A DNA stretch of 62,598 nt, filler included, from Dimargaris cristalligena (GCA_003614675.1; 26 parts of 26 records of this genome joined end to end with filler, not necessarily neighbours in it), one strand, 5' to 3'; shown: positions 14,705 to 58,187, counted from the whole stretch's first letter. Made by a program: numbers and translations. The notes: a model not told the origin generated them from the letters alone.

Positions 14705-15400
14705 TCTCTGGGCATTGCATCGAAATATTTGCTAAATTGTGTAACATCTTGTCACTTTTGGTTTCTTCTTGCCAGAAAATTGAACCTTCCAAAATTAAAG
14801 AAAAAAGAAACTTGGAAAGCTGCCATAGTCAAAAACAGATCTAAAATTTGCGAGTCATGCGTCAAACTTAATAAAAACGTGAAAACGTTGACTTTGCTGA
14901 ATACGATTGAAAAGGCGCTTGAAAACAATAAAAATGTTGAAGAATATATTACAACGAGACAAAATGACAACGAGCTGATAATTAGTGAAAATGCTGACAT
15001 TGGAAAGAATGAAATCATCGAACAGAAAAGAAATTTGTGCCTTCGATGTCGAATAGAACATGTGAACGTTCATCATGATAACTTTCCCATTAGGTATTGG
15101 AAAGGAACTGAAAAGATCGAAAATCTCACTAAAACGAATGCAAAGGAAACATTCTGCATAGGAGATAAAGTGATATCTATATTGGACTCTCGTGCTAGAC
15201 AGTCCGAAGGATATTGGGGTAGAATGTCCCTTTATAATTTTCACGAAGTTCAAATGCTGGCGTACGCATACCACGGAAGTGATCAGCAACGGGAAAAGGC
15301 CATGGAAAAGCGAACGCAAAGACGGTGTGGTGTTAAACAAAATTACTCGGGAGGTTATCACTCGTACCCTTCTTTCGACATGTTGGATAGAAATTTCTGA
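14705..15400 (+). CDS. F-box-like N-terminus, split C4 zinc finger and XPA C-terminal-like DNA-binding domain; 5' truncated
   Basis: Frame open from the contig start (SLGIASKYLLNCVTSCHFW, F-box tail pattern); CESC...CLRC; LTKTNAKETFCIGD and WGRMSLYNFHEVQMLAYAYHGSDQQREKAMEKR resemble XPA ITKTEAKQEYLLKD and WGDMKLYL...VWGSQEALEEAKEVR. Confidence 0.65.
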   Translation, partial: SLGIASKYLLNCVTSCHFWFLLARKLNLPKLKKKETWKAAIVKNRSKICESCVKLNKNVKTLTLLNTIEKALENNKNVEEYITTRQNDNELIISENADIGKNEIIEQKRNLCLRCRIEHVNVHHDNFPIRYWKGTEKIENLTKTNAKETFCIGDKVISILDSRARQSEGYWGRMSLYNFHEVQMLAYAYHGSDQQREKAMEKRTQRRCGVKQNYSGGYHSYPSFDMLDRNF

Positions 15401-15718
15401 ATTATATCAATCTTTGAATTCACTTTTTTGTTTACCACATAAAGTGACTAAAAACATGTGGCATTATTCACCTTCGGTAGGAAAAAGAGTGATGTTGTAA
15501 GAGAAACCGAAAAATCGAAGGTAAATCTGTCAAAGACTGTCTATAAATACTACCGGACGGTGGATTTCACTGTTTTGATTTCGACTGCATTCTACATGCA
15601 ATAAACCAGACAAACCTGATCGAAATTTGATCTTTGTTTACTTGTTTAAATGTAAAAAACTTGTTTATCGATAAAAGATTAACCAGATTGGCTCAAAATA
15701 TGCATAAATAAACATAAA

Positions 15719-16156
15719 ATGTATCATATGATCAAAATTACAATAATTATGGACAAAGTCGATTTTGAATTTTTGGTTTCGAAGATGAAAAAGAATAGTA
15801 CACAGATTCCACTCAGCAAAAACACTCAAAAACATTACGTAAAACTACTCCAGAGGATGGCTCTGATTGGTGCTCTTCAGCATGCATTTGATGCCGAAAA
15901 ATGCTTGAAAATATGTTCTGATGGTGGTGTCTTCGAGGACGAACATAAAAATAAAATTGATGATTCAGTTTCTTGCGCAGGTTCTCGACCAAAAAGCACT
16001 CTTCATCATTACGCTATGGTACTAGTCAAACTGTTCTATGTCCTAAGACATGAAGATTTTAAAAATCTTTGGCCTGTACGGAACGACTTTTCTTTCGTCA
16101 CTGTCAATCAAGTGCTGAACTCTTACAGAGGTTTTCTCACTTCTGATAATTCATAA
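15719..16156 (+). CDS. Hypothetical protein resembling a tyrosine-recombinase N-terminal (SAM-like/core-binding) domain; start may be 15749
   Basis: Helical motifs LSKNTQKHYVKLLQRM and PKSTLHHYAMVLVKLF; no catalytic R-H-R-Y domain; intronless. Confidence 0.5.
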   Translation: MYHMIKITIIMDKVDFEFLVSKMKKNSTQIPLSKNTQKHYVKLLQRMALIGALQHAFDAEKCLKICSDGGVFEDEHKNKIDDSVSCAGSRPKSTLHHYAMVLVKLFYVLRHEDFKNLWPVRNDFSFVTVNQVLNSYRGFLTSDNS

Positions 16157-16258
16157 CTTATGATTGTCGAAGGTAATCAATTGACTACCAGTGAATCCGC
16201 TGGAATCATTTCTTATTCAATTCTGAATCTTAGGGTTAGAGTCATTTGTTGCGAAAAA

Positions 16259-17044
16259 TCACATTTGGTTGGTGCTCGATTCGTGGTATTTTTTAATATT
16301 TTGGATATGTCTGAATCCGATTCGTGCATTGATACCAATCGTACCATCCTTGCAAATCGGTTTCCACAACCAAGATTCACAGTATCTCTGAATAACTGAC
16401 GCTGCACGGTTCCTTATTTGTATTCTAAATCTCCATCTTCTTTGCAGTTTACGCAATATATTATATTTATCCATACAAAAGTCACCATGACTGGTTTCCA
16501 AATTCAATGTTTTCTTTACATATGTAATGTCCAAATTGTCCACATGAGTAATTTTACGAAAGTCGCAGTCCAGAGATATAAGGCATCTTGGAAGATTCTC
16601 AATCTTGGTGATATGATTGTATAGGCAATTAATCTGCTGCAAAGAAAACGGAAGATTTTCAAGCTTCCTGATTTGATTGCTGTCGCAAAAAAGAAATTCC
16701 AAATATTCTGGAAGATTCTCTAGCTTTGTGATTTGATTGTAAGAACACCTGATATACTTTAACAAAGGCACAGGTTCAACTTGTGCAAAGTGCTGTATTT
16801 GATTTCCACAGCAATTAAGACGCTGTAAAGAAGGCGGAAGATTCTCGATCTTTGTGAGTTGATTTGTTCGGCAGGAAAGTTTTTGGAGAGATCGTGGGAG
16901 ATTCTCAAGCTTCTTTATTCGATTGTTATCGCAATTAAGCGTAAGCAACGTGCTAGGCAGACATTCAAGTTTTTCGATTTGATTTCCGGCACAATCAAGA
17001 GTGTGTAAAACTCCGGGAAGGTTCTCGAGTTTCACGATTCGATT
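16259..17044 (-). CDS. Leucine-rich repeat protein with C-terminal IQ-like motifs; 5' truncated
   Basis: About 7 units of LENLPxxLxxLxCxxNQIxK; LRKLQRRWR and AASVIQRYC; tail WLWKPICKDGTIGINARIG; frame open to the contig end (NRIVKLENLP). Confidence 0.85.
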   Translation of the reverse strand, partial: NRIVKLENLPGVLHTLDCAGNQIEKLECLPSTLLTLNCDNNRIKKLENLPRSLQKLSCRTNQLTKIENLPPSLQRLNCCGNQIQHFAQVEPVPLLKYIRCSYNQITKLENLPEYLEFLFCDSNQIRKLENLPFSLQQINCLYNHITKIENLPRCLISLDCDFRKITHVDNLDITYVKKTLNLETSHGDFCMDKYNILRKLQRRWRFRIQIRNRAASVIQRYCESWLWKPICKDGTIGINARIGFRHIQNIKKYHESSTNQM

Positions 17045-18026
17045 TTNNNNNNNNNNNNNNNNNNNNNNNNNNNNNNNNNNNNNNNNNNNNTTAATTAATT
17101 AANNNNNNNNNNNNNNNNNNNNNNNNNNNNNNNNNNNNNNNNNNNNTGGCGATATTTTAGGCCGCCCTGGACCACAAACAGAGTGTCACGGATCTACTTT
17201 CGGAGTGGAATAGTCCCCGGAACCGGAAAGTCGCCCGTTTCCACCAAGGCCGATTCCAAATCAAAACGTAGTATGCGAGAGAGAAGTGAAGGTAGGGGGG
17301 GGGATACGCGTGTCCCCCCTTTTCACTGCTCGATCAACTCGCATATCTCTCTCTTAGAGACCCGAAATTTCCCTCCCCTGCCTTTTACGAGAGCCCCCTT
17401 GCAGACGGTTACTATATAATCAGAAATAAATGACCCCGTATGGCTTATTTGCACATGCTTAACCTGGATTAGAATAACGTGCTACTCGTTTATTAAATGT
17501 ACGTTGACTAGGGTCAGCATTGATAGACAGTGCAAAAAGCCGAGAAGTCAGTAATGGTACCGACAACAAAAAAAAATTGGAATGAGGATGAAAAAAGTAG
17601 GAGAAATGAAAGGCCGATTGAAAGAATCCCCCTAGGTAAGGTGCACACATAATAATATAAAGTACAAAACATCAAGCATAGCCATCGGGTGGAGGATTGT
17701 AAATAAAAAATCTATATACCCGACGCGGAAGTGCGTAGAGTTTGGGATTATCATTTTTCAGTTTTCCGGGCACCCTGGCTAGAGTATGAGCAGTCGAAAA
17801 AGAAATTGTTGAATGCGGAGTAGAAATAGAATATATATATATATATAAAAGTAGACGAACCAATGTCATGAAAATATAGTAAAGAAATCAAGTGGAGTGT
17901 CATCACGGATCCATTGATAGCAAAGTCGAAGAAAGATTTAGCACCGGATCAATCTTATAGTAGTGGTGAAGGGGGGGGAGAGTGGCACATAACGGACGAG
18001 GGAAACCAGTGGCAGTTGTATGATCT

Positions 18027-31623: not shown

Positions 31624-31875
31624 NNNNNNNNNNNNNNNNNNNNNNNNNNNNNNNNNNNNNNNNNNNNTTAATTAATTAANNNNNNNNNNNNNNNNNNNNN
31701 NNNNNNNNNNNNNNNNNNNNNNNTAAAACATCTCTTTTTTCATTCTTCTGAACTGTACCGGCAGTTTTGCCTACAGTTGTTTTAGTTATTTCAAAGGTTC
31801 AATTTTACTATCTCTTTGATTATAAGGCATTCACACCTATTATTGTATAGTTGCTCTGCCATACCACTACAGTCT

Positions 31876-33677
31876 TGTTGTGCAACAGTGGGAAAATAGT
31901 GAAAATTAAAGTTTAAACAGTAATAAACATATAGCAAAAGTCAGCAAAAGAATCAGTTATCTCAAAGGCAAGAAACAGGGTGTCCAAAGTCTGGTTTATT
32001 AAAGGTGGGTGATTACCCCTTATTTATATGTCAGGAAATAAATCAAGGGGTTAGGGTATTCAGTGGTAGCAGAAAGCAGTAGTTGGTCTTGAAACCATTG
32101 TTGGAAAAACCACTAGTGGTCCTGGGTTACTTGATGTTATTGGCTGGGAATATTGGGGAAATCAGTGGCATCGCTGGTTTTGATTGAGTTCTGAATGAGT
32201 TTGTTCTAATAAACTCAGTGGCTTAGCTGCTGGGGGAGTTATGGGGATATTTGGTACTTGAGGGTTGGGGATTCCTGTAGGATAACTGGGGGAATCACCA
32301 GACTGGTCCTGAGGATGTCCTGGTGACCTGGGCCTAGGAATATGTACCACCAAAGTTTGTGGTTCTTAAGGAGGCAGCACAACAATCTGTTATGGCTGGA
32401 CTGGGATGACCCTAGTGGCCCTATTAATGTAGTGACTAAACTTTCTCTAGTCTTGGACCTTCCCTATAAAAGAGGATGAGCCCTAAGAGTTTCACCATTC
32501 CTTTAGTATTCAAACCCTTATTTTCAGTATATTTTTGCTATTCATTTTCTGGCCAGAATTACAAACTTTATGACTACATACCCCATGTATACAGTAGTCC
32601 TTTATTAATATAACCATATAATCACAGTAGTAATAATCCATATATATAACTATGCTGTTCCCCACAGGGTGAATGGGGATTCCTCTCTGGACCTTGATTT
32701 TTCCTATATCTTTTAGGTAATCACTATTAGCAGTTATATTGGTATTTACCTATGACTATTATTATAATTATATCCATTACTATTACTTGAAATAAATCCA
32801 ATTATCTCTATTACTATATTAAGCTATTAACAGCACAACAGTCTGTTATGGTCAGTCCAATATGGGCTTAGGATATCCACATTGGTTCACAGACTTCCCA
32901 AGTTTGGGATAACTCATCCCAACCTTGGAAATCAGTAAAAGCATATTAGTATTTGCAAAAACCATTATTAATGAATCATTACTCTTTTAATTATTCAAGT
33001 CTGATTATCAACCTGATTATTACTTGTTTAGTTCTTATATTTTGACCTTGGATTTCTCATGACTTAAGTACAGTCTTGGCTATCAATAGCTTATCAATTC
33101 AGTGATTATTCATTCTGGCATGGACAAAACTATTGTCCATTTATAACCATGATATATATAGCTGACATCAGCATGAAAAGGGAGACAGCAGATTCAAGCC
33201 ACATCTTATCTCCTTTTCTATATTCTCCTAAAACCTAAAAACATTAGTATTATATTAGCAACTTCAATTATTATCATATTTACCAGGATTACTGTTAAAC
33301 TACTTTTTAAATCACTGATTACTTGATTAAGCCACATTTTTCACAACATGTCCTGTGTGGTATTTGGTAATAAGGCTAGATAATTGATGGAAATCAGAGG
33401 TAAAGAATTTATTAGGAAAAATGAGGAAGGTGAAACTGGTTACTGAATTCAAGTAGGTGCAAAGTTGCTGGTATTTATATAGCTAGGAACTGGTGATAAA
33501 TATAGCCATTCCTGATTAGGATCAGAGGTTATCTATATTTAGGATTAATTAGCTTGTTGAATAATAGTAACTTGTGGTAAATTGCAAATAGGTCATAAAT
33601 TGTGAACTGATGGCAAATAGTGAGCTTGTGGTTGTGATGATGAACCGGCAGTGGGATGAGCCTGTGATTTTATCACA
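31876..33677. mobile_element. Array of four abutting TG...CA LTR-like units (31876-32384, 32388-32840, 32844-33348, 33354-33677)
   Basis: Unit 1 has a perfect TGTTGTGC/GCACAACA terminal repeat; units 2 and 3 start TGTTATGG and end CACAACA; spacers are ATC, GTC and TGTCC; both outer flanks contain GTCT. Confidence 0.5.
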
Positions 33678-33760
33678 GTCTGGAAATTGGCTTATTGACA
33701 TATTCTATTATGGTTTTTCTAGGGGGTGAATGTATTTTTTCAAATTTTTTATATCAAAGC

Positions 33761-34025
33761 TGTCAGTCCTCCTAATCTGACCTAATCCAGACTTAATGAT
33801 TATCCACCCTTATTAGGCCTTATAGTACCATATCAACCCTCCCATAGTTACCCCTGGTACTCTGAGACCATTATTCAGTATATAATCCTTCTCCTTCCTG
33901 CCCCAATGCTTTGCACAAAAACACTCAACCTACTAATCCAAAGACTCTTCTAGTTCCCATGAGAGTCTTCCAGATGTGAAGCCATCCAGTCAGATCCTAT
34001 ATCTACCTATACCTTAGTCTTAGTA
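33761..34025 (-). mobile_element. Family B LTR, truncated by the contig end
   Basis: TGTCAGTCCTCCTAATCT... aligns with the 27086 copy. Confidence 0.8.
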
Positions 34026-36527: not shown

Positions 36528-38417
36528 TTCTACGCGAACGGGCGCCAGCGATACGGCATTGCAACGGGGATTCCGGGGAAGCGGGACTACTGGCCAAGCA
36601 ATGCGTCGCCAAAGACTCTGGACGACCTCCTGAAGATCAAGGGTGAGCTCACCATCAGCCATTGCTTCCGTGTGTCGTCACCCAGCGCAGCAAAGCGTTT
36701 CATCGACAGTATCCGCAAGTACCACGAAGGCCAGCGCTTCGATGTGCGCCAGCTGCTCGCGGCGACCCTGCGCGGGACTGATATGGACGCCAAGCCAGGG
36801 CGCCAGAACAAAACGCGCCTGAAGGCCGCCGAAGAGGCGAACACACGCGCCGGCAAGGTCGAAATGCTTGAGGAGATCTACGGCTTCTACAACTTCACCG
36901 TCATTGCGTACTCGCCCGTGTTCGAGGAAACGCCGGCCTCGAAGGGTCTTGCCGGCGAGCAGGCCTACAAGAAAGCCGTGGCGACACACAACGCCGTGGA
37001 AGACGTTCTGCGCGCAGCCCAGTTCATACCGGTGCGCGAGACTCTGCACGCCATGTCGGCGTTTGCGACCACCATTCCGGGTATGTGGCGCGAGTGCGCG
37101 CGCTGGGCGTTTCTCGACACCGAAGCCGTTTCCCGCTTGCTGCCGCTGCGCGGCGTCTCGCGCGGCTCAATGTTCAATGCGCATCTGTCCAAGCAGATGC
37201 GCACACGGATTCCGGCGCTGGCGGCGTTTACCACCGAATACGGTACGCCTTTCTGGTTTACCGCCTACCTGATGGACCTTGGCCACATGCTCATCTGTGG
37301 CCGCTCGGGCTTCGGCAAGACCATCTTCATGTTGCTGTGCGCGACACTGTTCCGGAAATATCCGAACGCGCGGCTGATCGGCTTCGACATGAATTTGTCG
37401 ATGCGCATTCCGACTGTCCTGCAGGGTGGGCGCTATCTGCAATTTGCGGCCGATGCCAACACCGTGGCCGAAGAGGAGCGGGCAACCTGCAATCCCTATG
37501 TCCTGCTGGGTCATCTCCGCCATCTCAAGTTCCTAGTCGACTGGACCGTGCTGCTGGCCAGCCAGCGAGGCTATCGGCCCACCACGGACGATCGAAAAGC
37601 CATCGAGAAGGCGATACGCGCAGCTGCTACGCGCGACCCTCAATTCTGGCGTCTGCGGTTCGTGCACGCCTCCCTGCCCAATGGCCCGCTGAAAAACGAG
37701 CTTGACCAGTGGGTGGGCGAGGCGGTCGACGCGCTCTACTTCGATAACGAACAAGACGGTTTCGACGACACGCAGTGGACCTCGATTGCAACGGACAAGA
37801 TCCTCAAGGATCACGCCGTTGCGCGCCCGTTCCTCTCCTACGCGACCTACCGTATTCAGGACGAAATCGAGCAACGCCGGTTGCGCGGGGTCATCGCGCC
37901 AACCGTCGTCATGCTCCCGGAAATCTGGTCGCTGCTCGATGACAACCAGTTCGCCAAGCAGATCGGTGAATGGATCGTGACCATGCGCAAGCTGCTCGGT
38001 TGCGTTTGGATGGACGCACAGACCCCCGAACAAGTCGCCAACTCACCGATTTGGCCCGCCATCCGCGACAACGTTCTGATCCGCGTCTTCGTGCCCGTCA
38101 AGGATTTCAAGCCGGATACCAAGAAGGCCTACGAGGAAAAGTTTGGTCTCACGCAGACCCAGCAGGACGCGATCAAGAAGCTCAAGGCCAAGCGCGACTA
38201 CTTCATTACCGAGGACGGCGGGATCTCCCGCAGCGTCTCAGTTCCCCTGCCTCCGCGCACGGAGGCCATCCTGCGCTCCGAACTGCAGGCGCAGATCCTC
38301 TTCGATCGGCATATGCGTTCCGGTGAGCCGGACTGGAAGGAGCGCTACATCGAGGAGGCCACTGCACAGATCGAAGCCGACAAACTCAACCTAGACGATG
38401 AGGACCGCCATGCATAA
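36528..38417 (+). CDS. virB4: Bacterial type IV secretion ATPase VirB4/TrbE-like; 5' truncated
   Basis: Frame open from the contig start; T.YGTPFWF...LGHMLICGRSGFGKT (Walker A), FDMNLSM, NPY, EIWSLL...WIVTMRK and KRDYF motifs; GC-rich bacterial codon usage. Confidence 0.85.
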   Translation, partial: FYANGRQRYGIATGIPGKRDYWPSNASPKTLDDLLKIKGELTISHCFRVSSPSAAKRFIDSIRKYHEGQRFDVRQLLAATLRGTDMDAKPGRQNKTRLKAAEEANTRAGKVEMLEEIYGFYNFTVIAYSPVFEETPASKGLAGEQAYKKAVATHNAVEDVLRAAQFIPVRETLHAMSAFATTIPGMWRECARWAFLDTEAVSRLLPLRGVSRGSMFNAHLSKQMRTRIPALAAFTTEYGTPFWFTAYLMDLGHMLICGRSGFGKTIFMLLCATLFRKYPNARLIGFDMNLSMRIPTVLQGGRYLQFAADANTVAEEERATCNPYVLLGHLRHLKFLVDWTVLLASQRGYRPTTDDRKAIEKAIRAAATRDPQFWRLRFVHASLPNGPLKNELDQWVGEAVDALYFDNEQDGFDDTQWTSIATDKILKDHAVARPFLSYATYRIQDEIEQRRLRGVIAPTVVMLPEIWSLLDDNQFAKQIGEWIVTMRKLLGCVWMDAQTPEQVANSPIWPAIRDNVLIRVFVPVKDFKPDTKKAYEEKFGLTQTQQDAIKKLKAKRDYFITEDGGISRSVSVPLPPRTEAILRSELQAQILFDRHMRSGEPDWKERYIEEATAQIEADKLNLDDEDRHA

Positions 38418-38790
38418 GACCTTCATTCGCAATGACATCGAGGTGCGCGTATTTGCTGCCCCCAAGGCACTCGAACCCGAAACCCGGAAGCAGTACGAAG
38501 AACTCAGCTTGACCTCCGCTGAGGTGAATGCAGTCAAGGCCTCGCGTATTGCCCGCACGGCGAAGCGCGCGGCCGCAGCGCTCGCGCTCTGCACGTCAGC
38601 TTCGGCATTCGCCGGCAGCGTGGCTGGCTTCGGCGGCGCGACCGAGATTACGCAGTTGCTCAACAACGCCGAACTGGTGTCCTCGGTTGCCCAGCAAGCC
38701 CAGATGGTCGAGCAGAACATCCAGGCGCAAATCACCCGGCTGCAAAACCTCGCCCAGGTGCCGGGCGAGCTCATCAACGAGCCCACTTGC
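38410..38790 (+). CDS. trbJ: Conjugal transfer protein TrbJ/VirB5-like; 3' truncated
   Basis: GAGGA RBS before the ATG at 38410, overlapping the end of virB4; signal-like AAAALALCTSASAFA; GGATEITQLLNNAELV motif. An alternative GTG start is possible at 38524. Confidence 0.7.
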
Positions 38791-39969
38791 GCAGGAAATA
38801 GGCGTTGTTGTCGGCGGTCGGGGTGAANNNNNNNNNNNNNNNNNNNNNNNNNNNNNNNNNNNNNNNNNNNNTTAATTAATTAANNNNNNNNNNNNNNNNN
38901 NNNNNNNNNNNNNNNNNNNNNNNNNNNTTAACCCGGCCGAGTTTGCTGTACCTGGCCAAGTTTCCTTGATTGACCGCTTCAGTCCCTTGTTTTGGGACCA
39001 GTATTGCATTGCTTCGACTTGGGTTCTTCCTTTGCTTTGTATTCCCGCTTGTCTGTTTCAACCACGCCTCCAATACCAGTCTTAAGGACCGGGGCGATTG
39101 CCAGTGCCACCCCTATTGCACCACTGCCCGCCCCAGCCCCAGCACCAACACCAGAGGCAGTCTCAGCTCCCTTGGCCGGCTCTGGGCCCGAAAACCCCGA
39201 TGCTAATGAACCCCCTGCCCCACTACAAACATAATAGAGTTCCGGGTTATTCGTAGTGTTTAGTATGCCATATATAATCTCACCTATTACCCTGTTCAAC
39301 TGTGCAGCCCCCCCTCTTCCTCATCTTCATGTATGCCCCATTATTAATATAAAACTCAACCTTATTTTCAACCTGCTTAATGCATCCATACTTACTACTA
39401 CATCAACCTCATTTATTTATATTATACATATTATACGTATATACTATATTCGCAGCTCGTTTCATATATTATTTCACCAGACTCGATTACGTATATGTTA
39501 TAAATGCCACATTATCTGTTCGATATAGTTGTATTTTAAATACCGGCCCAGCGCCTAAGTAGAACGCGATGTATCCCGCCTATAGGTGTGTTAGTATCCC
39601 TACCGGCTTTATTTTCCTTCCCCTTCATGGTGAATTTCTGGCTGTATTTCATTACAATATTACTGTGTTTTTCTAAATAAAAGATGGCAGGTCATTTAAC
39701 TAGGCACTACATTAGCCCGAATTTCGCACTTTGACTCTTTCGACGATTGGAGGTGTGATTGGGTATTGGGCGGGTTTTGGTGCTGTTAAATGTTTAATGA
39801 TAAATGGAGAAAACTTAGCAGGGGTGGCTGCTGGTGCGTATGATAATAATATAAATGCAAAATCGGGGGAAATGAAAAGGACGGCTGGTCTAATGCAGGA
39901 CCATTAGCCTGGAAATCGAATGATAAAATCAGGTAATTGGGTGACAATATGAGATCGATTCTTCGGTCA

Positions 39970-53275: not shown

Positions 53276-54763
53276 TATACTCTCAAACCAACGCTTGCCG
53301 AAGTGAAGACCATTCTGGCGGAAACCGGCGCTAATGTTGTCCCGATCTACCAGGAAATTCCGTCCGATCTCCTCACGCCGGTATCGGCATACCTAAAGAT
53401 TGCCCAGGGCAGTGACTACTCGTTTCTCTTCGAGACCGTCGCCGAGAAGGAGGTCACCGGCCAGTACTCGTTCCTGGGGGCCCAGCCCTATGAAGTCATC
53501 CGGACCGGTCCCCAGGAGGCCCGGGCGGTGGATCCCTTGGTGGATGTGGAATCGCGCCTTTCCCAGATTAAGTACGCCTCGGTGCCCGGTCTGCCCACCT
53601 TCACGGGCGGGGCCGTGGGTTACATTTCCTTCGATTGCATTAAGTACTTTGAGCCCACTACCGCGGTTGATCTGAAGGATAACCTGGGTATTCCCGAAAG
53701 CGTCTTTATGCTGGTGGACCAATTGGTGATTTTCGACCACCGATTCAATTTAATCAAGGTGGTGGCCCATATTCGGACCGATACCGATTCCCAAAGCAGC
53801 GTGGATCAGCTCTACCAGGAGGCCCAGGCCCGCATCCAGGCCACCATCGCGTTGCTTAACACCGCCGAGGTACCCTTGCCTCCGCAGGGCCCCATCCGCT
53901 TAGGCCAGGAAGGTACTTCCAATATCGGTCAGGCCGGCTACGAGGGCATCGTGGAGGAGCTCAAGAAGAACATTATACAGGGGGACATTTTCCAGGCCGT
54001 ACCTTCCCAACGAGTGGCCCGCCCCACTGACTTGCACCCGTTCAATGCCTACCGCTACATGCGGACCATCAACCCGGTGCCCTATATGTTCTATCTTCAT
54101 ATCAAGGATTTCCAAGTCGTCGGAGCTTCTCCTGAAATGCTGGTGCGCGTCCATGACCGCATTGCGTACACCCACCCCATTGCGGGAACCCGCAAACGGG
54201 GGGCCACCCCGGCGGAAGACCAGGCCCTCGCCGACGACCTACTGGCCGATACCAAGGAGTGCGCCGAGCATGTGATGCTGGTCGATCTCGGTCGTAACGA
54301 CGTCAATCGGGTGTGCAAGCCCGAAACGGTGAAAGTGGACTCGTTGATGAAAATCGAACGGTACAGCCACGTCATGCACATTGTGAGCAAAGTGAGCGGT
54401 GAACTGCGGCCCGACCAGACGGGCTTCGATGCCTTCCGTTCCATTTTCCCCGCGGGTACCGTGAGCGGCGCCCCGAAAGTCCGGGCTGTGCAGCTGATCA
54501 GTCAGTACGAAGGAGAAAAGCGGGGCATTTACGCCGGCGCCGTCGGCCATTTCGGCTTCTCCGGCGATTTGGATACCTGTATCGCTATCCGGTCCATGCT
54601 ATTCAAGGATGGCGTGGCCTACCTCCAGGCCGGCGGCGGAATCGTCTACGACTCGGTGCCCTTGACGGAATGGGAGGAAACCCTCAATAAAATGCGATCC
54701 AGTATCAAGACCATCGAAGGTGCCGAACTTTACCATCACCAACTGCAGCAACAACGGCAATAA
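53276..54763 (+). CDS. TRP2: Anthranilate synthase component I; main exon (first exon is off the contig)
   Basis: DLLTPVSAYLK, GDIFQAVPSQR, GASPE, PIAGTRKRG, EHVMLVDLGRND and FPAGTVSGAPK motifs; CATTAG acceptor at 53275 followed by YTLKPTLAEVK. Confidence 0.95.
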   Translation, partial: YTLKPTLAEVKTILAETGANVVPIYQEIPSDLLTPVSAYLKIAQGSDYSFLFETVAEKEVTGQYSFLGAQPYEVIRTGPQEARAVDPLVDVESRLSQIKYASVPGLPTFTGGAVGYISFDCIKYFEPTTAVDLKDNLGIPESVFMLVDQLVIFDHRFNLIKVVAHIRTDTDSQSSVDQLYQEAQARIQATIALLNTAEVPLPPQGPIRLGQEGTSNIGQAGYEGIVEELKKNIIQGDIFQAVPSQRVARPTDLHPFNAYRYMRTINPVPYMFYLHIKDFQVVGASPEMLVRVHDRIAYTHPIAGTRKRGATPAEDQALADDLLADTKECAEHVMLVDLGRNDVNRVCKPETVKVDSLMKIERYSHVMHIVSKVSGELRPDQTGFDAFRSIFPAGTVSGAPKVRAVQLISQYEGEKRGIYAGAVGHFGFSGDLDTCIAIRSMLFKDGVAYLQAGGGIVYDSVPLTEWEETLNKMRSSIKTIEGAELYHHQLQQQRQ

Positions 54764-55538: not shown

Positions 55539-55608
55539 CCTTTCCCTTTTATTATCTATCTTTTCAAATAAAGTTCAGTTTTCAAGGATTTGAGTTCAGT
55601 TCTTTACA
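55539..55608 (+). mobile_element. Family C LTR end nested in copia pol
   Basis: Matches the 48475-48544 copy. Confidence 0.75.
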
Positions 55609-56445
55609 CTAGGAATCCATGTTACCCAAGAGGACGTCAAAGGTGGTAAGCAAATTTGTTTATACCAACAAAAATATATAGATAACTTGTTAGTTAATTA
55701 TTCTATGATTGACTGTAACCCAGCTAAAACCCCCATAGAAACAGGGTGTAAACTGGTTGCTGCCACCTCTGATCTTGATACAGAGGACATCCCTTTTGCC
55801 AACTTAATTGGAAGCCTCATGTACCTAGCAAACTCAACAAGGCCTGACATTGCCTACACCATCAATAGGTTAAGTACATTTAACTTTAGGTCAGCCTCTG
55901 AGCACTGGCAAGCTGCAAAACATGTCTTATGGTACCTAAAAGGAATGAAAAACAGTGGACTTACCTTTAAAAAAGGTGACAAACTGTGACTAGAAGGAGC
56001 CACTGATAGTGACTGGGCAAACAGCCCCACTGACAGGAAGTCAATCACCAGGTACATTTTTGTTTTGGCCAGTTCACTAATTAGTTGGGCATCAAAGAAA
56101 CAAAAGATCATTGCCACATCCACTGCTGAAGCCAAGTACATCACCCTATCTGAAGCCATTAAAGAAGCAATCTAGTTAAAGGCATCACTGGAATTCCTGG
56201 GTGAAACCATGCCTACAGTGACCATTGATTGTGACAACACAGCTAGCATTGCCATGGCAACCAATCCGGGAAACCATAATTGAACCAAACATATAGATAT
56301 TCATTACCACTTTATTCATGACTATATTGAAAAAGGAGTAGTAAAATTAAACAAGGTAGTGAGCGAAAAACAAAGGGTGGACTTCCTAACTAAAGCCCTT
56401 AGTTTACCAGCCTTTTCTCACTGTTTTCAGCTCTTTGGATGGGAT
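55609..56445 (+). pseudogene. Degenerate Ty1/copia pol (RT C-terminus and RNase H)
   Basis: IGSLMYLANSTRPDIAY, TDSDWA...DRKSIT, ATSTAEAKY, TKHIDIHYHF and DFLTKAL motifs, with in-frame stops. Confidence 0.93.
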
Positions 56446-56465
56446 AATAATAAATGAAAGGGGAA

Positions 56466-56725
56466 TGTTGGAAATTCATTTCCCCCGTCCCACTGATTCC
56501 ATCTCTGTGATTGGCCCATCCTATACTCAGGACTATTTTCTAGCCATTACTATATCATTCTACACCTTGGACTTTGTTCTAATCATTATTAATGCTATTA
56601 TACAATTCAATAAAACCAACCACAGGCATCTAGCCTTACCCCTTGTAGTTCTTTCTCTCTTCTTTGAATCTTTTCAGTTGTATATGAAGGCACTTGTATT
56701 TACCATTCAATCTATATTTCCAACA
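56466..56725 (+). mobile_element. Copia 3' LTR (family D, 260 bp) preceded by a polypurine tract
   Basis: Polypurine tract at 56456-56465; perfect 10-bp terminal repeat TGTTGGAAAT/ATTTCCAACA. Confidence 0.88.
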
Positions 56726-57127
56726 TGATGTGACTCTACTGGGTTGTTGGGCACCAGACCATGATGAGGAAGCCAGTCAGAACAACCAGTCCATAAGTGA
56801 GAAAGGGTACAGCAGGGGTAGTAAAGGAGATTATTCAGTCAGTGACATGATATGAAAATGCTTGGAGCATAATATTACCAGAGGAATACAAGTAAATGAA
56901 TTATAACCAAGAAAAATACTTCATTCATATCAAAATATACATAATCAAATACTGTCATTACTTTACAATTTTGCTCTTTGATGGCCTTGTTAGGAAAATA
57001 ATCAATTAATAACTTACATTTTAAAGAAGAATTTATTTAGGAATAATAATTTAGCAAAGTATGCAAAATGATGTTGACTAGTTTGCTCCTCTGAACTTAG
57101 GAGCATAATTGATGTGTTTAAATATCC

Positions 57128-57677
57128 TATTGGCCTGCCTAATCCTTCCTAAATATGGAACACTGATCACCCTATCCAATTACCTTATAGCACCATATTA
57201 CCCCTCCCTCAACTATATAACCCACTATGACCAGGTCCCAATGCTTCTTACACTATACTCCACTGGCTGATCCAATGACCCTCCTCTCTCAGTGAGAGTC
57301 TTCCAAAAGCAAGCCCACCTAGTCGAAATTCTAACCCTCACCTCTTCTACTAGTCATCCCATTCCCTTAGGGACCCCTCACTATGAGCAGTCCCCATGTA
57401 TAAATAACTGGGCCCCTCTGGGACTGGTTCAGTTCCTTAGCTTATTTCTTACCCCCATAGTTTACCTTAATAAACTCCTTATATGCTCACCCATTGTATT
57501 AGCCAGTAAGTGTGCCCACTGCATGTCCCTTGCATTAGCCTACACTCATCCTTTATTGGTTAGTACTGATCCCTCCCTAATACTAGTAGCCTGCTTGGCT
57601 AAGCCTAAGCCCCACCTACCATTAGAAGCCTATCCTCGAGACTCTTGATGGACTAAGAGTGGTTAACCTGGGTGACA
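57128..57677 (-). mobile_element. Family B solo LTR with perfect 5-bp TSD TATCC
   Basis: TATCC at 57123-57127 and 57678-57682. Confidence 0.88.
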
Positions 57678-58187
57678 TATCCGAACAGTAATACTATTGA
57701 TAAATGGTTTTGTCAATGCCCATGTGGCCTCTAGCAACAAGTTCGCCAGCATTGATCATTATCTACCTTCGCTTTTCATCTTGGCATTGGGTACGCGTTT
57801 CAATATACAGGGAGAATTAGCGGTCGATNNNNNNNNNNNNNNNNNNNNNNNNNNNNNNNNNNNNNNNNNNNNTTAATTAATTAANNNNNNNNNNNNNNNN
57901 NNNNNNNNNNNNNNNNNNNNNNNNNNNNGGATGCAGTTCTTGGGTTCGAGGTGGTTTTTATTTATATTTGATCTTGGAAGGTAAGCGGCGGAGTCGGCTT
58001 CCTCCGTTTGCCCAGTAAACGGTTCAGGTGATGGAGGTGGAGGTAGTGGACGAGTAATTTTTTTCATAAACCCTTAATATCTCCCACCCAACTGGCATGG
58101 GGGGGCCGGCTTTTCTTATGAAAGAAAGAGACCTACTGGGTAATATGCAAATGCTGTTGGTGTCTACTGTCTAGTGGAGGGAGGGGA

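Follow-up and report, generated by a model that had tools for sequence, protein, structure and literature searches.

A foreign contig in a Dimargaris cristalligena assembly, possibly a fragment of a giant virus

In the 62,598-nucleotide stretch of DNA analysed here (the window), taken from the Dimargaris cristalligena assembly GCA_003614675.1, one contig, at positions 14705-17046, is foreign to the assembly, as judged by its composition and by its lack of similarity to the other contigs of the window. We put at roughly 0.5 the probability that this contig is a fragment of a Nucleocytoviricota-like large double-stranded DNA virus carrying accessory genes. The main support for a viral reading comes from one of its three open reading frames (ORFs), ORF3, which encodes a leucine-rich repeat (LRR) protein whose relatives lie next to core genes of nucleocytoplasmic large DNA viruses (NCLDVs). 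The observations comprise the composition of the contig, its ORFs, their domain similarities, the genomic company of the ORF3 family and the multi-copy state of the contig in sequencing runs; it is the viral origin, the host and all the functions proposed below that we infer.

The ORF3 family and its genomic company

The features of the contig, in window coordinates, are the following.

14705-17046, strand not assigned: whole contig, the compositional outlier of the window (N-spacer bounds, composition, absence of similarity to the 25 others)
14705-15400, + strand: ORF1, orphan with a C-terminal XPA/Rad14-like domain, 231 codons plus TGA; its 5' end lies off the contig and the frame is open from the first base
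15038-15379, + strand: predicted degenerate XPA/Rad14-like DNA-binding domain, residues 111-224 of the 230-residue query (phmmer against PDB sequences)
15416-15573, strand not assigned: high-copy spacer stretch with imperfect inverted arms (15466-15480 and 15550-15565) enclosing about 70 nt (run depth, loose ends, fold)
15749-16156, + strand: ORF2, resembling a stand-alone tyrosine-recombinase core-binding (SAM-like) domain, 135 codons, TAA stop (relatives, AlphaFold model, VIA-align, Atlas)
16259-17046, - strand: ORF3, LRR protein with a conserved C-terminal module, 262 codons plus TGA, N-terminus off the contig (Pfam LRR_4, 76 relatives)
16505-17046, - strand: at least eight LRRs of 20 residues, boundary approximate (60-nt direct repeats, alignment A1)
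16301-16465, - strand: conserved C-terminal module of ORF3, residues 194-248, with a basic helix, an invariant IQ and then CxxWLWxPxCKDGxxGI (alignment A1)

ORF3 matches the Pfam family LRR_4 at 1e-16 (61 bits against a cut-off of 27), and the 60-nt periodicity of its DNA implies repeats of 20 residues, the consensus of which is about LENLPxxLxxLxCxxNQIxK. A homologue search identified 76 relatives among 391 candidates, with identities of up to 52%. Nearly all of them are metagenomic, and the three that bear an organism name are one protein from an 'Alphaproteobacteria metagenome-assembled genome (MAG)' and two generic LRR matches in animals; Pfam FNIP matches are present in several relatives. 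In alignment A1, 12 sequences align past the LRRs and share the module YNxIKxLQRRxRxR...AAxxIQxxCxNWLWxPxCKDGTxGI, with Y194, Q201, R203, I218, Q219 and W225 invariant in all 12. No Pfam model matched this C-terminal module. The protein had originally been described as LRR+IQ; its LRR part is borne out by the LRR_4 match and the repeats, whereas membership of the IQ family (PF00612) is not, since no such hit appeared in ORF3 at E <= 1, even though the IQ dipeptide is invariant and the basic residues preceding it are conserved.

Scanning IMG/VR with the ORF3 alignment yielded 24 relatives at 23 loci (8 named GVMAG), on contigs of up to 719 kb, and a scan of metagenomes yielded 193 ORF3 relatives, for which 74 loci were kept. 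The latter is the less biased and the weightier test, because IMG/VR is pre-selected for viral contigs. A hidden Markov model (HMM) of the C-terminal module detected 57 ORFs in 37 of the 99 fetched loci, some of which duplicate one another, a single contig being stored in two collections.

The flanks of these relatives provide the link to giant viruses. Searching them by tblastn with two capsid proteins revealed an NCLDV major capsid protein (MCP) at loci L001, L011, L015, L022, L033 and L034. At L022, the MCP directly adjoins the ORF3 relative, and in the L011 record a Capsid_NCLDV match (9e-38) and the LRR gene are about 2 kb apart; the L003 record contains no Capsid_NCLDV match. A Pfam tally of 73 flanking ORFs at six viral loci (73 of the 88 listed ORFs, with L011 left out) included Capsid_N, an mRNA capping methyltransferase, ribonucleotide reductase and YqaJ. 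The corresponding tally of 50 flanking ORFs at six metagenome loci (50 of the 71 listed, with L068 and L049 left out as copies of a scanned contig) included Capsid_NCLDV, Capsid_N, two P9_TM, DNA_pol_B, D5_N and EsV_1_7_cys. Across 185,579 prokaryote species, each represented by one genome, a single pattern for the C-terminal motif produced three pattern matches and no relatives. With NCLDV capsid, PolB, D5 and P9 genes as neighbours and no relatives in this prokaryote scan, the ORF3 family is, on the strength of its sequence neighbourhoods, giant-virus-associated. We also observed that L003 and L005 represent one 31-kb IMG/VR contig, on which the gene combining LRRs and the C-terminal module occurs in three copies.

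These results bear on another possible source of the contig, an intracellular bacterium with eukaryote-like effector genes (LRR, F-box). One ORF3 relative is indeed deposited under an Alphaproteobacteria MAG name, and many bacteria are likewise AT-rich and not depleted in CpG. However, the contig of this relative (L092) is only 2.2 kb long, its LRR gene has an ankyrin-repeat ORF next to it, and the relative is probably mis-binned; the prokaryote scan for the C-terminal motif, for its part, produced no relative. In addition, XPA/Rad14, which the ORF1 domain resembles, is a eukaryotic repair family, and no Shine-Dalgarno-like sequence precedes the start of ORF2. We regard a bacterial source as extremely improbable.

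A gene-dense compositional outlier

Rather than a continuous chromosomal segment, the window is a set of 26 pieces of 2180-2355 bp each, ordered by length and separated throughout by spacers of the form N44-TTAATTAATTAA-N44. Such spacers flank 14705-17046 on both sides, and this interval is exactly one complete contig of 2342 bp, which is not physically linked to its neighbours in the window because the pieces are joined by N-spacers. On another contig of the window, an intact anthranilate synthase (53276-54760) shows 76% identity to those of Dimargaris verticillata and Dispira simplex and about 60-64% identity to the enzymes of other early-diverging fungi; judged by this 76% identity, the assembly is fungal and closest to Dimargaritales.

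Against this background, the composition of the contig is unlike that of all 25 others. Its GC content is 36.1%, with observed/expected (o/e) ratios of 1.04 for CpG and 0.57 for TpA, whereas the 14 other window contigs with a GC content of at most 43% have CpG o/e ratios of 0.04-0.87 and TpA o/e ratios of 0.91-1.30. By trinucleotide distance it is likewise an outlier, the nearest other piece of the window lying at 0.32. Neither blastn nor tblastx found similarity between the contig and the 25 others. The description of the contig as AT-rich and not CpG-depleted is thus upheld, and the claim that it belongs to no host repeat family stands as far as these 25 contigs are concerned, although parts of the contig are multi-copy in sequencing runs (see below). 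As for the AT-rich contigs of the fungus itself (e.g. 31724-34025 and 55539-57828), 13 of the 14 have CpG o/e ratios of 0.04-0.55, with normal or raised TpA, and the 14 are devoid of long ORFs, a pattern expected for repeats eroded by C-to-T change at CpG.

The three ORFs cover 80.7% of the contig and are intronless, and all frames are intact under the standard code, in agreement with the original picture of three tightly packed intronless genes. At the composition of the contig, an open frame of 261 codons has a chance probability of about 3e-9. The spacer between ORF1 and ORF2 measures 348 bp (counted to the start at 15749), while only 102 bp separate the convergent ORF2 and ORF3; the fold of this convergent spacer (16150-16265) is unremarkable (z -1.76). 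Both the gene density and the absence of introns are of the Nucleocytoviricota type. Scans of the contig with Rfam and for tRNAs gave no match. A mimivirus-type promoter octamer was rejected as evidence: its two occurrences in the contig both fall within ORFs, and it is found seven times in the window against 3.9 expected, a count reached in 10 of 100 shuffles.

ORF1 and ORF2

ORF1 belongs to no Pfam family, XPA included, and has no homologue among 176 word-sharing candidates; a single-sequence AlphaFold model reached a predicted local distance difference test (pLDDT) score of 36. When searched with phmmer against PDB sequences, its residues 111-224 align to residues 5-130 of the 131 residues of Rad14 (5g32) at an E-value of 0.0018, a weak and near-full-length match, and a second Rad14 construct follows at 0.1. 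The aligned segment thereby spans nearly the whole minimal DNA-binding domain of XPA/Rad14. Unlike in that family, however, the zinc finger is incomplete: of the four cysteines, the first CxxC (CLRC) is kept, and the second Cys pair of Rad14 faces YWKG. The N-terminal context differs as well, and identity is low. We therefore describe the C-terminus of ORF1 as a predicted, degenerate XPA/Rad14-like DNA-binding domain.

The original prediction had called this protein F-box-like, which we could not confirm. Pfam gave no hit to F-box (PF00646 or PF12937) in ORF1 at E <= 1, the N-terminus lying beyond the end of the contig. The idea derives from a stretch of some 25 residues next to the N-terminal truncation and from leads in the Atlas, a search for language-model neighbours, in which ORF1 scores 0.80 with clusters where 15-69% of the members have an F-box; another lead, with an equal score, is a cluster in which most records are assigned to Nucleocytoviricota.

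For ORF2, the ATG at 15749 matches the starts of its relatives, and an upstream ATG at 15719 would extend the frame to 145 codons. A full HMMER search of 1.84 billion representatives returned six hits, five of them true relatives. Two of these, with 44% and 39% identity, come from the chytrid Blyttiomyces helicus, where they are annotated as hypothetical proteins on contigs of 4.0 and 4.7 kb; the other three, 118-134 residues long and without a name, derive from assemblies of metagenomes or sequencing runs. The sixth hit, a 3857-residue protein of Paulinella micropora (E 1.5e-21), was discarded as spurious, being a repetitive protein with 11 weak matches of 1-11 bits each. The gene models of the two B. 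helicus relatives (P0085 and P0089) have long, low-complexity C-terminal extensions.

Sequence searches with ORF2 in Pfam and PDB were empty, and alignment A4 retrieved nothing from Pfam below an E-value of 0.037. The only entry that the A4 profile retrieved from the PDB sequences was a designer PPR protein; it had 0 passing stretches and was judged spurious. The AlphaFold model from a six-row alignment is all-helical, with a pLDDT of 78.5 and a predicted template modelling (pTM) score of 0.73. Foldseek found nothing for this model in PDB and BFVD at E <= 0.001. In an exhaustive VIA-align search, the top row is domain 1 (D1) of Ndc10 (Z 7.4, root-mean-square deviation 2.8 over 85 residues), and further rows include XerA (Z 7.3), the integrase of phage Brujita (Z 6.7), an isolated integrase N-domain (Z 6.6), the core-binding domain of lambda integrase (Z 5.9 and 5.2) and many more integrase N-domains. 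Together, integrase N-domains and Ndc10 D1 account for the majority of the 23 top rows, with 82-99 residues aligned at Z 5.2-7.4; Z-scores below 8 are within reach of unrelated helical models, which makes these rows middling but consistent. Atlas neighbours agree, as ORF2 scores 0.94-0.98 with clusters that are named after the core-binding domain or carry Phage_int_SAM.

In its predicted fold, ORF2 thus appears to resemble the core-binding domains of tyrosine recombinases (XerA, lambda Int and phage integrases) and Ndc10 D1, which supports the earlier description of a recombinase N-domain-like protein. It differs from tyrosine recombinases in having no sequence match in Pfam or PDB and no catalytic domain (R-H-R-Y): the protein ends at 135-145 residues and is followed by the 102-bp spacer and the convergent gene. 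Since the catalytic domain is missing, ORF2 is not a recombinase, and it is best read as a core-binding domain alone.

Copies in sequencing runs and the origin of the contig

The contig or part of it is present in six sequencing runs, from three studies and under three organism labels (A, B and C). Organism A accounts for four of the runs, all from differently coded samples, with shares of the contig of 0.97, 0.85, 0.78 and 0.39. One run of organism B holds a share of 0.82, while two other B runs hold next to none, and one run of organism C holds a share of 0.18 in a version 95-99% alike. No RNA run is among those listed as holding the contig. Overlapping error-free pieces support the path of the contig in run X1 and, independently, in run X3. 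In X1, a Logan contig continues for 277 nt past the left end of our contig.

Extra copies, 85-99% alike, accompany the contig in the runs of organism A; in the identity bands 99+, 95-99, 90-95 and <90, the pieces number 17, 3, 2 and 6 in X1 and 22, 9, 7 and 10 in X2. ORF2-like pieces are diverged, for instance by 46 differences in 382 nt. The summed depth of the contig in X1 is 141 over 14705-15257 (the 5' part of ORF1) and about 550-790 over 15574-16205 (most of ORF2), and it rises to 1695-2633 over the spacer stretch 15416-15573, that is, to 12-19 times the depth of the 5' part of ORF1. Within this stretch, loose ends leading into alternative flanks are numerous at 15441-15556 in X1, X2 and X3, and the predicted fold has an energy of -35.1 kcal/mol (z -2.57). 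The stretch looks like a miniature inverted-repeat element. In X2, a 33-letter palindromic insert takes the place of 15513-15514.

A joint leading from 16114 back to 15307, with an identical 10-letter filler, recurs in X1, X2 and X3 (two studies). Together with the raised depth and the diverged pieces, it suggests that the ORF2 unit has been duplicated, in tandem or in dispersed form, over 15307-16114. The copy pattern fits the paralogue arrays of large viruses and fits equally well a multi-copy integrated element or a cellular genome.

Could the contig be an old endogenous viral remnant, fixed in the chromosomes of the fungus itself? Endogenised giant-virus genes have been reported in early-diverging fungi (PMC13533422), and the recovery of the contig from four separately coded samples of organism A would be in keeping with such an insert. 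However, an old insert would be expected to erode like the strongly CpG-depleted AT-rich DNA of the fungus, and it is disfavoured because the CpG o/e ratio of the contig is 1.04; all three frames are intact, too. Two of the three organism B runs lack the contig, which partial genomes could explain, and its presence under three organism labels fits a virus or an organism shared between cultures better than an old insert fixed in one species. A remnant of this kind is therefore very unlikely.

Several observations count against a Nucleocytoviricota-like origin. As the original prediction had already stated, the contig bears no hallmark gene. MCP, PolB, A32 ATPase, VLTF3 and D5 of NCLDVs are all missing, its contents being an LRR, a core-binding-domain-like and an XPA-like protein. 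Core genes are what defines a giant-virus genome fragment, and by that standard the contig does not qualify as one, although their absence from a contig of only 2.3 kb does not exclude a viral origin. Among its three genes, ORF3 is the only one that ties the contig to giant viruses. Neither ORF1 nor ORF2 has a relative in 974 kb of giant-virus-like loci (tblastn at E <= 0.01, HMM and phmmer), and scans of IMG/VR with ORF1, ORF2 or ORF3 as single proteins, with alignment A4 or with the ORF2 relatives P0086-P0088 returned no relatives; the hits of the ORF3 alignment in IMG/VR are biased, as this collection holds only contigs already called viral. Furthermore, the only named relatives of ORF2 are the two proteins in the chytrid assembly, its closest Atlas clusters point away from Nucleocytoviricota (see below), and the three organism labels in three studies, together with the two B runs that lack the contig, fit a shared co-cultured organism or a contaminant, too. 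The claim of an NCLDV-type fragment is consequently carried by the ORF3 family and its position beside NCLDV core genes, and not by ORF1 or ORF2, which have no such relatives.

Some of these observations would suit nuclear DNA from a different cellular eukaryote in the culture or sample, for example a protist or a host fungus grown in co-culture; the genes would then be its own, perhaps acquired long ago from viruses. A co-cultured organism shared between the three studies would explain why the DNA appears in runs under three labels, the similarity of ORF1 is to a eukaryotic repair family, the named ORF2 relatives are in a fungal assembly, and both the gene families with several copies and the small inverted-repeat element are reminiscent of eukaryotic repeats. 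On the other hand, not one named cellular eukaryote has a module-bearing protein among the 76 ORF3 relatives, despite the many fungal and protist proteomes in the collection; in a eukaryotic nuclear genome, 81% intronless coding sequence would be unusual, as would a convergent spacer of 102 bp; and the ORF3 family accompanies NCLDV core genes. On balance, we consider a cellular eukaryote a possible, though not a likely, source.

Alternatively, the contig might stem from a smaller double-stranded DNA element of the Preplasmiviricota type (virophage- or polinton-like), or from another mobile element, with several diverged and possibly integrated copies. In the Atlas, ORF2 lies closest to two clusters (scores of 0.98 and 0.97) that comprise proteins of about 130 residues; the few members on record there are viral, most commonly from Preplasmiviricota, not Nucleocytoviricota. 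The recombinase core-binding-like fold of ORF2, the copies 85-99% alike within the same runs, the recurrent joint with its 10-letter filler and the high-copy spacer element all suit such an element, and polinton-like integrases occur on fungal MCP contigs (PMC13533422). Yet the Atlas neighbours, which provide the only link to this group, are leads without alignment, with taxa known for only four members. The contig carries no capsid protein (double jelly-roll MCP), penton, packaging ATPase, protease or integrase catalytic domain, and the ORF3 family is found beside MCP, PolB and D5 of the NCLDV type on contigs of up to 719 kb. This origin, too, appears unlikely.

A Nucleocytoviricota-like origin would have precedents in fungi. 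According to Myers et al. 2026 (PMC13533422), giant-virus contigs and proviruses, including Mycodnaviridae, are found in zoosporic (early-diverging) fungi, and the sole MCP hit outside zoosporic fungi comes from Dimargaris cristalligena. Our contig resembles theirs in being gene-dense, virus-like DNA of deviant composition in a non-Dikarya fungal assembly. It differs in that their contigs are defined by MCP or other core genes and reach 350 kb, whereas ours measures 2.3 kb and has no core gene; in that study, LRR and F-box each occur 0 times. Another point of comparison is Cafeteria roenbergensis virus (CroV), whose FNIP/FGxxFN LRR proteins are described as an expanded repeat-protein family of a giant virus (PMC9525666). 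ORF3 similarly belongs to a multi-copy LRR family of large DNA viruses; however, in contrast to the CroV proteins as described there, its unit is the 20-residue LENLPxxLxxLxCxxNQIxK, without FGxxFN, and is followed by the C-terminal IQ...WLWxPxCKDG module.

If the contig does derive from a Nucleocytoviricota-like virus, this virus may be free, persistent or recently integrated, and would have been present in the material from which the Dimargaritales-like fungus was sequenced. ORF3 could act as a protein-protein interaction scaffold, its LRR solenoid binding a host or viral target while the basic, IQ-like and Trp/Cys-containing C-terminal module docks to a constant partner. The degenerate XPA/Rad14-like domain of ORF1 possibly stands behind an F-box-type adaptor cut off by the contig end. 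ORF2 would be a small DNA-binding protein, unable to cut DNA, and might, more speculatively, bind DNA sites that occur repeatedly, for example the high-copy inverted-repeat element that precedes its gene.

A bolder version of this proposal, improbable as a whole, holds that a non-zoosporic mycoparasite of the Dimargaritales type carries a persistent giant virus or satellite, with diverged copies, present in more than one labelled organism and endowed with undescribed gene families. These would be an adaptor with a zinc-less XPA-like DNA-binding domain, an LRR family with an unnamed module that is widespread in environmental giant viruses, and a duplicated family of core-binding-domain-only proteins acting on a short high-copy inverted-repeat element.

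Records of giant viruses in fungi are recent and nearly confined to zoosporic lineages. If real, a virus-like element in a mycoparasite of the Zoopagomycota would imply either that their host range is wider or that the virus belongs to an organism in co-culture. The contig also marks the presence of non-host DNA in a publicly deposited fungal assembly, a point that bears on claims about gene content and horizontal transfer drawn from it. In addition, the analysis defines two protein groups: a C-terminal module, widespread among the LRR proteins of giant viruses and without a Pfam match, and a small family of stand-alone proteins resembling recombinase core-binding domains.

A second stray contig was observed in the same window at 36528-38827. 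It has a GC content of 61%, a CpG o/e ratio of 1.23 and a TpA o/e ratio of 0.48, and contains an open frame of 629 codons that runs off the start of the contig and belongs to no Pfam family; it may represent other non-host DNA, perhaps bacterial.

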